From Heptranchias perlo (Eukaryota): a stretch of 64,000 nt of DNA. The position numbers were made by a program, and so were the translations under genes. Below are positions 13,632-23,892 of the stretch, one piece after another (the first letter of the stretch is position 1; each line of letters starts with the position of its first letter). Below the pieces are notes generated by a model, which saw nothing but the letters and a program-made list of their open reading frames with translations, had not been told where the DNA came from and searched no databases. Location of the stretch: positions 8,680,001 through 8,744,000 of the forward strand of contig NC_090364.1 of NCBI RefSeq assembly GCF_035084215.1, in the 5' to 3' direction.

Positions 13632-13733
13632 ATGGCTTCCCAGATATGTCAGAACTACCACCAGGATTGTGAGGCTGCTGTCAACAAACAGATCAACATG
13701 GAGCTCTATGCCTCCTATCTTTATCTTTCTGTG
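13632..13733 (+). CDS. Ferritin A exon 1 (coding)
   Basis: ATG..GTG followed by GTGAGT donor. Confidence 0.95.
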
Positions 13734-16700
13734 GTGAGTTTTCTATTTGGATTGTAAGTATCTAGTTAAATATTTGCCTTTCAGTTAAAGTTAACTTTCC
13801 CATGTCTGTTCCCCCCCCCCCCTCTTTATTATTCTAGTTATAGCATTTGAATGAACTGAATTTGTAGCTGTTACTTCAGTATTTTCATAAGGCGTGGTAA
13901 TGCTCCAGCTTTGTGCTAGTTCATTGATCATTGTTAGTAATGAGCAAGTTCTTGTTCTCTAGCAAACAGAATGCAATTCAGACGGCTGTACTGGGTAAGA
14001 GTTAAATAAGAAGGCCCTGTGACACTAGTATCAAATTAATTGGCACAGCTTTTTAAAACAAAGCTGCAGGCTGTGCATGCAACATTCCTACAAATGTGTT
14101 TCAATACACAATCTATTTCAAAGTGGTGAAATGAGCCTGTCATCTCATCCCAAGTGACCATGGACATTAAGCCATTCATGATTTCATCTCACATGGCCAA
14201 CAAATCCTCAAACCACTGATGTGGATGATTCTATTTATGGGGATGCTGCCTCTCAGAAGTTGGATGAAGCAAACAAGATTTTATTGCAGTCTGGAAGAAA
14301 AAAATTGGCTTAATTATTTGTAGCTTGTCTTGTCCAATTTTTTGAAAGAAACAGCAAGTACACATCTGATTCAGTTCAGATCACAAGGAGAGGTTTTTCT
14401 TTATCCCCTCCCTCTCTCTTTCTTCCCCCCCCCCACCACTTCAAGTTAAGCTACCAAATAGTTACATATTGGGCTGGGGAAAAGTGCTTGCTCCAATTAC
14501 AGGAGTGACCAGCTCCACATTACTAGTGAATACCTAAGTAGACATGAATCTAGTAATGCCCCTTTGGATTTTCTAGCCAGTAGAAATATATTGCTATTCC
14601 AATTTGCTTCCTTGCTTTTTATATTCAGTGTTTTTGTGTAACCCTCTGAGATCTCTGCACTCTAATTCTGACTGCTTGTGCATCCCTGATTTCCTTTCCT
14701 CCACCATTAGTGACTGCCTTCAACTGTCTGGGCCCTAAGCTCTGGAATTCCCTCCTCCTTTGACCAAGCTTTTGGTCACCTATCCTAATTGCTGTAGCTT
14801 GGTGTTGAAATTGTCTTGATGTTCCTGTGAAGTGCCTTGGCATGTTTTTACTACATTGAAGGTGGCACATAATTGCTGATTATATAAATCACTTTCATAG
14901 CATCTTCTCCACTTCTACTGTGGTTTATTAAAGATCTAACTTTCTTTAGTCAGGAACTCTACTTCCACTCTAGTCATGTTTATGGTGGTTACTATTCTCA
15001 CAACCAGGTACTACACATCTACTGGACTGCATCTGCCACTGGACTTCTGCAATCTTTCATTCCTCAGGAGTGCAAAGCCCCAACTTAGGATCATTTGCAA
15101 ATGTCAAATATCATTGCTCTTGTACCTTTCCTCAACAATTTTGTATAAATAGAAATCTATCACTCCATGACCCATATTAGAGAAACATTCACCTGCCCCT
15201 ACTCTTTGTATTGTCTTTGCTTGATTCCTTAAGACATCTCTATCAATGTAGCTACTCTTTGCTCTGTGCTGTAAAATTCCTTTACACTGCACTTTATCAA
15301 ACTCTCTCTCTCAATCATACAAACATTACCTTTGCTATACACTCTTTTCCTGTTTAAGGGGAACATGCCAATTCAGCCCTAACAGCCTCTTCTGATAGTC
15401 AATTAGATCATGGTTAATTGGTATCTTAACTCCATTTATCTGCCTTTGTTCCATATCCCTTAACACCCTTACCTAATTGATCTGTCTTGAAATTTTCAAT
15501 TGACCCCCAGCCTCAACAGCTTTTGGGGGAAGAGTTAGATTTCCACTACCCTTTGTGTGAAGTGCTTCCTGACATCACCCCTGAACGGCCGAGCTCTAAT
15601 TTTAAGGTTCTGCCCCCTTGTTCTGGACTCTCCCAACAGAGGAAATAGTTTCTCTCTTATCTACCCTATCAATCCTTTAACCACCTTGGAACACCTCCAA
15701 TTAGATCATCCCTTAATCTTCTATACTCAAGGCAATACAAGCCTGGTCTGTGCAACCTGTCCTCATAATTTAATCTTTTAGCCCTGGTATTCTGGTGAAT
15801 CTGCATCAACCTGCCCTTTACAAATCCATGCTGTCTTATTTAGCTCCTGTCAGTGTTATTTTCATTACCCACATCTGAAATAAGTCAAATGGCTGATAAT
15901 CCCTGACTTTTTTGTTTCCTTGAAGATGTGTAATGTTTGCCATTCTGCAGTCAATTTGGACCAAAGACATCTGGAAAAAGTATGGCTGGTGCCTCTGCTA
16001 TCTCTTCCTTCATCTGAGCCTAGTAATTTTTGATTGTTTTGTGCCCATTAGAATATTTATCTCCAGTAGTGGCTCTTCCACATTCTACTTGCTTATTCCT
16101 ATAGTTCCCCTTTCACTGTCATCTGTAAAAACAGACAATATTTAGGCAATTCTACCATTTCCCTCCATCTTCGGTTCAAGGTTACCCTTTAATCTATTGA
16201 TCCCTCCATTTCATTGATTTTCTTAAACTGGAACCAGTGTTGACACTGGAGTAGCAACCCAGTGTCTGATTTCTATTTGACCAATGTGAAATTGAAGTCA
16301 ATAAATCTGGTAATTTGTAGGCTGGCACCAGACAATAGACCTAACTGGTTCACTAATGCCCTTTTTAAGAATGGATCCAGCCACCTCATACCTGCTCTGG
16401 CCTACATGTGACTTCAATTTATGCTGTGGTTGACCTTAACGTGGCCTTGTCCAATATCATCCACATCCCAAGAACAAAATACAACAGTTGAGGTGTTTAT
16501 AATTTTATAAAAGTCCACTTTCCCTATATTAACTGTTCATATTTCCTCCTGCTGTCTACATTTTTAATTGTTCTCTTTAATATCCTCATGGCCTACAAAT
16601 CACCTTTTTTCTGTACTATTCAATGGTTACCTAGGAATCTACTTTGACTCATCCCTTACTATTTCTTACCTAGCTGGGCAGACTGAGGGCAACCAGCAAT

Positions 16701-22136: not shown

Positions 22137-22238
22137 ATGGAGTCCCAGATTTGCCAAAACTACCACCAGGATTGTGAGGCTGCTGTCAACAAACAGATCA
22201 ACATGGAGCTCTATGCCTCCTATCTTTATCTTTCTGTG
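22137..22238 (+). CDS. Ferritin B exon 1 (coding)
   Basis: ATG..GTG followed by GTGAGT donor. Confidence 0.95.
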
Positions 22239-23892
22239 GTGAGTTTTCCATCTGAAGCTGTAATCTTTAATAATATTTCCCATTATTTAAAGTGAGCTTT
22301 ATTGGCCTTTTTTTTTCCTGTTTTAGCTCCAATGAAACTGCATTGACTGCAACTTGTTGGAACTGATTTGGTGACAACTGTGCATTGTGAGAAGTGCCCC
22401 CCCACCCCTGCCATGAGTGTGGAGATAACTGAAATAGGAGCTTTGTTACAAACCTGATCTAATTTTGACAATGAATACTGCTTTCCTAATTAAACATTAA
22501 GGCTTTGTGGCACCATTAATCTTGGCACAATTGCTTTATGGTGAGCTGCAGCCAATCTTAGTAAGACCAATTATGGTGCAGCTAGAAGTCTTGTGCCTTT
22601 ACCAAATCTGTATCCATTCTTTATATTGTATTGACAGGAATATCATTCATTTTTTTCTTGCTTCCCCATTTCATCTGTTTGTATTCCTTTTTGAAGCATT
22701 CATCAGCGGCTGGCTTGTGTGGCCAAACTGGGAAGTTGGAGAATAACTAATTTGGCTTTTTGGCAATTTAGTCTTTCACGTTTAAGTGATTTCAGTGCAG
22801 AATAACTTTTTTTAATCTTGAATATTCAACTTGATAAGTTGACTAGAGGGCCTAAATTCTGAATCACCTGAGGACTGGAGCTGGGGTCGACATGTTAATA
22901 GGATTTGGATTATTCTTTTCAGATGTCGTACTTTGACCGGGATGATGTTGCTCTCGACAACTTCTCCAGGTTCTTCAAACATCAGTCCCACGAGAAGCGG
23001 GAACGTGCCGAGAAGCTGATGAAATTCCAGAATCGGCGTGGAGGCCGCATCCTCCTACAGGATGTGAAGGTTGGAATTGAGAAACGGCCCTGTACAAAAT
23101 GGCTGCTTTTATATTTGAGCTTCAAGTTGCTAAATTAAATTAGTTCTTTTAAACTTCATAAATGTAGGAGTGAATAGAAAGAATTTTTTTGTCTTGGCTT
23201 GAGATGTGAAATAATGCAAAACTATGGCCCTTGCTGCTTGGGTTGAAAAGTGGAGGGGAGATCCGACAAGGTGCATGTTGGACTGATTGACTGATCCATG
23301 TGTATTTCCAATCACTAATTGTTCATTCTCCATTTGTCACCCATGGAGTAACTAGATACAAGGACCTGCTGAACCTTGTAAAGTTTAAGTACCATAATTC
23401 CATTATTCTCCCTTTAGAAACCAGAGAGAGATGAGTGGAGCGATGGCCTGCAGGCAATGCAGGTCGCCCTGGAGCTGGAGAAGAATGTGAACCAGAGTCT
23501 ACTGGATCTGCACCAACTTGCCACCACCCAGACTGACCCTCATGTAAGCTTTGTTTTGTATAGTTCTATTGTCCTCATTTTTATGAATTTTGACTCCAGT
23601 AATTCCAATATCTAAAGTTGGAAGGCTATGAATTTTGCCAAAAGCAATAGCCTCAACAGAGAACTGGTCTGATAATACTGATCCCCGTTCATTTTGGGGA
23701 GCTGCCTTGATGAACCTATAATATGCTCTCTTCCAGCTATGTGACTTTCTGGAGACTCACTACTTGGATGAGCAGGTCAAGGCCATCAAGCAACTTGGGG
23801 ACTACATCACCAACCTGAACCGTCTGGGAGCTCCTGAGATTGGCATGGGAGAGTATCTGTTTGACAAGCTCTCTCTAGAGGAGAACAGTTAA
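22137..23892 (+). CDS. Ferritin subunit gene B (H/M-like scaffold, 176 aa), join(22137..22238,22923..23069,23418..23543,23737..23892)
   Basis: [180 protein letters not shown] introns. Confidence 0.95.
22923..23069 (+). CDS. Ferritin B exon 2
   Basis: TTTTCAG acceptor, 147 nt. Confidence 0.95.
23418..23543 (+). CDS. Ferritin B exon 3
   Basis: CTTTAG acceptor, 126 nt, GTAAGC donor. Confidence 0.95.
23737..23892 (+). CDS. Ferritin B exon 4 (coding)
   Basis: TTCCAG acceptor, ends at TAA. Confidence 0.95.

Follow-up and report, generated by a model that had tools for sequence, protein, structure and literature searches.

The window analysed here, a stretch of 64,000 nucleotides of the shark Heptranchias perlo (NC_090364.1, positions 8,680,001 to 8,744,000, forward strand), carries two ferritin genes, termed gene A and gene B, in which the glutamate at position 62 of the ferroxidase centre is replaced by lysine. 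An earlier reading of the bare letters (the original prediction) had proposed two intact genes with Lys62 and an altered position 65, and this was borne out: both genes consisted of four exons with GT-AG at all introns and an open reading frame (ORF) of 176 amino acids without internal stop, and both were represented by RNA contigs. Residues are numbered as in the mature human H chain, with an offset of +3 (query 3-173 against chain 6-176; exon 2 aligned gap-free). The features of the two genes, in window positions, are as follows.

13404..13552, + strand: promoter of gene A, with three inverted CCAAT boxes (13404, 13442, 13472) and TATAAA at 13547; alignable to the promoters of the array genes described below
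13632..13733, + strand: gene A exon 1, coding part; E27 and Y34 kept; spliced contig
16854..17000, + strand: gene A exon 2; codon 61 GCG at 16923 (GAG allele in RNA contigs), K62 AAG at 16926, C65 TGT at 16935
17388..17513, + strand: gene A exon 3; E107, H118; spliced contig
17912..18067, + strand: gene A exon 4, coding part; D131, E134, Q141, L173 and stop; spliced contig
18200, 18242 and 18475, + strand: AATAAA downstream of gene A
21845..22040, + strand: promoter of gene B, with four inverted CCAAT boxes (21845, 21881, 21925, 21955) and TATAAA at 22035
22137..22238, + strand: gene B exon 1, coding part
22923..23069, + strand: gene B exon 2; E61, K62 AAG at 22995, R65 CGT at 23004; RNA contig
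23418..23543, + strand: gene B exon 3; ORF and RNA contig
23737..23892, + strand: gene B exon 4, coding part; AATAAA at 24050

Gene A encodes A61 (GCG), K62 (AAG) and C65 (TGT), and gene B encodes E61, K62 (AAG) and R65 (CGT). E27, Y34, E107 and Q141 are kept and positions 57 and 60 are His in both, as had been predicted, so that the H-chain ligand set (E27, E62, H65, E107, Q141) is incomplete at 62 and 65 in each protein, and the M-chain combination of an intact ferroxidase centre with lumen carboxylates occurs in neither. The proteins were 73 percent identical to pig H and 61-63 percent to L, and the identical proteins on record are named 'ferritin heavy chain-like' from Heptranchias perlo (P0032, P0002). 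A predicted model of B had the ferritin (PF00210) fold, with helices at 11-39, 46-72, 93-120, 124-154 and 163-170 (mean predicted local distance difference test score 89), and solved H ferritins were matched at E ~1e-84.

A 731-nt spliced RNA contig spanned all four exons of gene A and differed from the assembled exon 2 at two letters (16924 and 16940), only the former, in codon 61, changing the encoded residue and codons 62 and 65 being unaffected, and a contig over 22973-23065 of gene B, codons 61-65 included, showed zero differences; these contigs came from four runs of one sample in one study, possibly of the very individual that was assembled. A spliced joint across gene B intron 1 was also seen, which could derive from a near-identical third gene. 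The E61A change of gene A stands as the letter of the assembly and falls as a fixed change: C>A at 16924 gives Glu at codon 61 in runs X1, X3 and X4, and since Ala appeared only in X2, E61A is probably an allele. The ratio of non-synonymous to synonymous rates (dN/dS; Nei-Gojobori, 172 codons, within this genome) was 0.19 between A and B (Fisher p 4.5e-6), 0.12 between B and the third gene and 0.36 between A and the third gene. These values are not near 1, and A and B are under purifying selection. Pseudogene status of A, B and the third gene, at 8.399 Mb, was ruled out by intact ORFs, spliced contigs and dN/dS.

A Pfam search of the 3.25-Gb genome returned 575 ferritin candidates, 150 of them scored. 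Exon-2 copies at least 89 percent identical to A numbered only four (among 40 of 193 candidates scored), namely A, B and two genes at 8.399 and 8.407 Mb of the window's contig (C43). The gene at 8.399 Mb was intact, with E61, K62 and C65. The fourth, at 8405800-8408700 (- strand), had an open frame with a 2-codon deletion in exon 1, had lost E27 and Y34, and over 138 codons showed 42 differences that were non-synonymous and 10 that were synonymous, a near-neutral replacement excess; it looks to be decaying. Farther along the same contig, at 4.27-4.78 Mb, lay a tandem ferritin array with 80 exon-2 copies, of which 65 belong to intact genes. Of these 65, 54 had Glu at position 62, 7 had Lys and 4 had Asn; a residue other than His stood at position 65 in 4, and E27, E61, E107 and Q141 were invariant. 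The Lys62 codon was AAA in the array (beside GAA) versus AAG in the window genes, and the array copies that had lost Glu62 nested inside the array in a coding-sequence tree, as a group of nine (ultrafast bootstrap (UFBoot) 99) plus one pair; for these two reasons the array losses have an origin separate from that of the window genes, in one or two events.

To what extent Lys62 extends beyond this genome was apparent from 326 ferritin proteins, of which 69, compared without position 62, were nearer to B than to an array representative. K62 and E107 were present in all 69, and as the set was chosen without that column, K62 in A and B is not due to chance, although the 69 include isoforms and near-copies and are therefore not 69 independent events. 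The RNA contigs and this constancy together ruled out an assembly error at codons 62 and 65. The source names spanned 12 shark species, for which the original prediction of a change in 'this lineage' was too narrow, and the clade was recovered with support of 100/97, this genome's genes being sister to all galeomorph sharks sampled. The triple change did not hold up as a trait, with only K62 being fixed: H65 was kept in 63/69, E61 in 64/69 and E64 in 66/69. Lys62 is the real trait of the clade, because the loss of His65 is mostly local and Ala61 is allele-specific. C65 occurred in 3/69 rows, all from two genes of this genome, and was rejected as a conserved metal site; binding of another metal through C65, as had been suggested, is unlikely given this restriction, the R65 of the neighbouring gene and, we infer, the ordinary CpG-type nature of a CGT to TGT change. 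Alternating K62/E62 pairs were likewise rejected for other sharks, where fused gene models joined like with like, P0125 excepted. In ferritins, H118, D131 and E134 serve the three-fold pores and Leu169/Leu173 the four-fold pores; the former three were present in 69/69 clade proteins and L169 and L173 in 68/69, the remaining row being a gap. The clade was amplified in carpet sharks (clusters at 90% of 43, 45 and 76 members), in which E141, present in 37/69 clade proteins, was gained. Among the other proteins, array-type ferritins with R65, K27 or K62 in sawfish, white shark, whale shark and sawshark (P0009, P0143, P0167, P0168, P0019) represent further independent changes of the ferroxidase centre, and three shark-type ferritins filed under Salmonella and Aeromonas names (P0316, P0319, P0145) are likely contamination or mislabelling.

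A separate intact E62/H65 gene with an iron-responsive element (IRE) adjoined bestrophin on contig C12 (22.98 Mb) and is the FTH1 orthologue, by the FTH1-BEST1 linkage that we take to identify it; the FTH1 clade (99/96) excluded A and B. Rfam matches to the IRE were found before FTH1 and before a single-copy, catalytically intact gene at 4.244 Mb of the window's contig (two matches in 90 kb). With these two genes as positive controls, there was no Rfam match in the window, at the K62 genes near 8.40 Mb or in 150 kb of the array, the scanned stretches of which hold 28 intact array genes. In the K62 genes, the 300 nt next to the start codon contained three to four CCAAT boxes and a TATA box. At least three CCAAT boxes were present in 60/65 array genes, versus about 9 percent of random 300-nt windows, and most array genes also carried the CCAAT/TATA set, which FTH1 and the IRE-bearing gene lacked. 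When scored against doublet shuffles, the K62 upstream regions aligned to the array promoters with a median z of 12-14 (z>3 in 65, 61 and 65 of 65), as compared with z of -0.8 to 1.9 for FTH1.

Passages on the FTHL17 ferritins report that Glu62 to Lys alone abolishes ferroxidase activity (PMC7760355), and a Lys62-Glu107 salt bridge is described, in the part of the source used, as taking the place of the iron site and stabilising L ferritin (PMC11396501). Among 80 L-type proteins, a few of which carry doubtful species labels, we counted K62 in 79, E107 in 80, E57 in 51, E60 in 53, His57 in 20, E27 in 10 and E141 in 76; His57 is thus no bar to an L-like role. In L chains, E57 and E60 contribute to iron nucleation. 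The claim that A and B have 'no compensating nucleation site' was correct in that Glu is absent at 57 and 60, and overstated in that B and most clade members retain E61 and E64, and just 51 of the 80 L chains carry E57 and 53 carry E60.

On these grounds we consider, at about even chances for the account as a whole, that A and B belong to a shark-wide Lys62 clade of predicted ferroxidase-dead subunits that would act as L-like stabilising partners, co-assemble with the Glu62 subunits of the array, and have arisen apart from tetrapod FTL. This function is inferred from the established effects of E62K and from sequence anatomy. In place of an iron ligand, Lys62 would form a pair with Glu107 within the helix bundle, the L-chain arrangement, so that stability would be gained at the expense of catalysis; iron would still enter by the three-fold pores, where H118, D131 and E134 are kept, undergo oxidation by the Glu62 partner subunits and end up stored in 24-mers of mixed composition. 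With no IRE, transcription from the common CCAAT/TATA promoter, and not the iron level, would determine output. That these are intact subunits with an L-like Lys62, either convergent with or related to L, agrees with what had been predicted, and the genes are also transcribed and constrained.

Possible, yet doubtful, is a wider proposal in which sharks would possess a second, IRE-independent ferritin system, made up of some hundred catalytic genes or more and a dedicated non-catalytic Lys62 subunit under a shared promoter, and serving egg iron loading. In it, vertebrates would have arrived anew at separate heavy and light roles by the one-base Glu62-to-Lys change no fewer than four times (in FTL, in FTHL17, in this clade and within the array). 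The largest ferritin cluster of the Greenland shark is given as ovary-specific in a passage of a preprint (10.1101/2024.09.09.611499), and an ovary or egg setting for A and B may be taken as a lead from another shark only. The same passage counts 155 and 179 ferritin copies, called FTL and FTH1, in the Greenland and great white shark, large clusters as in this genome; it assigns these labels by similarity and does not cover ferroxidase residues, IREs or a Lys62 clade. In a second Greenland shark preprint (10.1101/2025.02.19.638963), the outline and a term search of the main text gave no mention of ferritin. No paper on a shark Lys62 ferritin was found in the literature on ferritin with shark, elasmobranch or cartilaginous fish, in a surface-level search with subscription journals mostly outside it.

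Several results weigh against the account of L-like partner subunits of independent origin. This genome has only three intact clade genes, as against 54 or more intact array genes with Glu62, and the contig depth cannot rank gene expression. One gene A contig begins at 13538, 9 nt upstream of the TATA box, and the promoter of B also aligned to that of the IRE-bearing single gene (z 3.8). Position 60 in the clade was Q in 49, E in 10, H in 9 and R in 1 of the 69, and since E57 and E60 are mostly absent, the nucleation role would be weaker than in mammalian L. P0125, a partial Chiloscyllium model outside the 69, contains a clade-type repeat with E62, so that K62 is not strictly universal. The protein trees, finally, allow another origin. 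These were built from 77 rows, from a reduced set (20 rows dropped, of which 3 were long branches and 17 near-redundant, and 5 trait columns dropped) and from a further set of 54 rows with lungfish L and without column 62; they contained no teleost M, gar or bichir sequence. A site-mixture model of the 77 rows joined the clade to tetrapod and lungfish L at 79/89. LG+C20 with posterior mean site frequencies (PMSF) did so at 100/99, with column 62 or with columns 27, 61, 62, 65 and 141 removed. In approximately unbiased (AU) tests on constrained trees (three of six searched thoroughly, two in fast mode only), K62 with FTL had p of 0.48 and 0.60 and K62 with the array, thoroughly searched, p of 0.41-0.69, neither being rejected.

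The clade itself was recovered in phylogeny, and its placement with FTL or with the array differed by model, as LG+G4 joined it to the array at UFBoot 100 from the same 54 rows. The supports of 100/99 and 100 contradict each other and are not trustworthy, because the AU tests reject neither placement; grouping of the shark genes with FTH1 was not rejected either (p 0.43-0.47). Synonymous divergence (dS) of the clade was lowest to the array (0.88, versus 1.06 and 1.51), and E62K is easily repeated, with AAA from GAA in the array, AAG in the window and FTHL17 as a further case. Convergence seems moderately favoured over FTL orthology, given that IRE loss is shared, that the promoters are homologous, that dS is smallest to the array and that E62K arises easily.

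The strongest competitor, which we regard as unlikely while giving it real weight, keeps the L-like function and makes the clade the true shark orthologue of FTL, with Lys62 having arisen once, before the split of sharks and bony vertebrates, from a tandem duplicate on the chromosome of BAX, GYS and RUVBL2. Besides the PMSF grouping, which survives removal of the trait columns, the clade and L share states (rows of 14 clade and 15 L proteins, respectively) at K62 (14/15), L37 (9/14), I8 (8/13), S52 (14/9) and L173 (14/15), with non-Tyr at 29 in most of both; lungfish L keeps E27 and H60, as does the shark clade, and the L-typical E141 is that found in over half of the clade. The window's contig also carries glycogen synthase (0.24-0.28 Mb), BAX (0.85 Mb), RUVBL2 (5.7 Mb), a KDEL receptor and, between the two K62 pairs at 8.40 and 8.69-8.70 Mb, a Sec7-domain gene, a set that we take to match the human FTL region with order not kept. 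Human FTL sits between BAX and GYS1, and a turtle model (P0025) fuses BAX to FTL. A and B share the chromosome only: no ferritin was found in the 50 kb around BAX or the 60 kb beside GYS and RUVBL2. Mammalian FTL has a 5' IRE; none was found at A and B, whose promoter is that of the array. The LG+G4 grouping and the AU results likewise speak against orthology, as does, weakly, the finding that no clade member was seen among ray, sawshark and chimaera proteins in word-based searches with the best 120 listed.

Compared feature by feature, A and B resemble tetrapod and lungfish FTL in K62 with E107, L169/L173, the four-exon gene and the chromosome with BAX, glycogen synthase and RUVBL2, and differ from it in being nearer H in sequence, in keeping E27 and Q141 without E57/E60, in being multi-copy and in not lying beside BAX. 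Like the teleost and frog M chain they may be ferritins of the M/L branch; the ferroxidase centre is intact in the M chain and altered in A and B. Orthology of teleost M with tetrapod L is reported in the portion of PMC4117605 used. Within the literature searched, the clade is apparently undescribed, L-like and conserved in sharks, and as it departs from FTL in several defining features, it is not classed as FTL here.

Less probable still is that the subunits have left iron storage and, acting like FTHL17 or as homopolymers of a chaperone-like kind, serve in regulation or in the germ line. FTHL17 is derived from FTH1 and intronless. A and B share with it E62K and the largely kept other ligands, whereas, unlike X-linked mammalian FTHL17, they have three introns and lie outside FTH1 in every best tree. 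The same E62K occurs in FTHL17, which is, in the passages on it, multi-copy in mouse, without reported ferroxidase activity, germ-cell expressed and partly nuclear (PMC7760355), and the missing IRE match and the amplification in carpet sharks would suit such a role. However, the three-fold pore residues and lumen E61/E64 are nearly always kept, which fits continued iron handling, the promoter is common with catalytically intact array genes, and identity to horn shark is near that of the array genes (88.6 versus 91.5 percent). Least probable, and by our estimate very unlikely, is that K62 has no selected function of its own, whether because redundant copies tolerate it or because some activity is left: the many intact Glu62 copies, the fourth clade gene and the drift of positions 61 and 65 in this genome are in its favour, yet K62 is constant across 12 species in an otherwise constrained protein, and simple relaxation would affect the ligands more evenly than in the array, where position 62 varies in 11/65 (though by only one or two events), position 65 in 4/65 and E27, E61, E107 and Q141 never.

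Further ferritins were noted in this genome. At 4249000-4254000 (- strand) of the window's contig, a gene with introns and intact ligands (P0013) encodes a 58-residue N-terminal extension (9 Arg, 1 Lys, no acidic residue) that might serve as a transit peptide to mitochondria or as a signal peptide, distinct from mammalian FTMT and seen in one species only. At 4257000-4261200 (+ strand) lay an intact ferritin with K61, E62 and Q65, thus a subunit with an altered centre, which the coding-sequence tree placed as sister to the array and the K62 clade together. Ferritin pairs, nearly identical and spaced by about 5.7 kb, recurred by the dozen as a scattered amplified unit on C38 (9.6-17.7 Mb), C725 and C1048; K62 was found in 0/18 exon-2 copies in 200 kb of C38, all of which keep E62 and H65, many with W63. 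Intronless, mostly broken array-type copies lay at C5:24.82, C9:17.35, C42:12.53, C3:124.2 and 23.05, C30:6.33 and C5:116.3 Mb, and if these are retrocopies, they would imply germ-line expression of array genes. Within the window, exons of a Rac-like small GTPase (27299-36888, + strand; Pfam Ras, best PDB match Rac1) directly follow gene B, and together with the Sec7-domain gene 200 kb off may mark a fourth Rac paralogue, a suggestion behind which stands a presumed paralogon pattern. The window starts with a 19-nt tandem repeat (1-323) and contains LINE-like reverse-transcriptase fragments at 9.2-11.3, 40.1-41.1, 51.8-52.6 and 55.3-55.7 kb.

Collectively, proteins of the A/B type, which databases label as heavy or middle subunits, carry a light-chain signature. 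If the clade is convergent, Glu62-to-Lys would be a path by which heavy/light ferritin systems can arise repeatedly, and natural intermediates would be available in sharks, with E27, H65 and Q141 kept and E141 gained in carpet sharks, for defining the minimal requirements of an L chain. If its members are FTL orthologues, the L chain would be older than the split between sharks and bony vertebrates. Either way, the unexplained ferritin expansion of sharks gains a testable internal structure.

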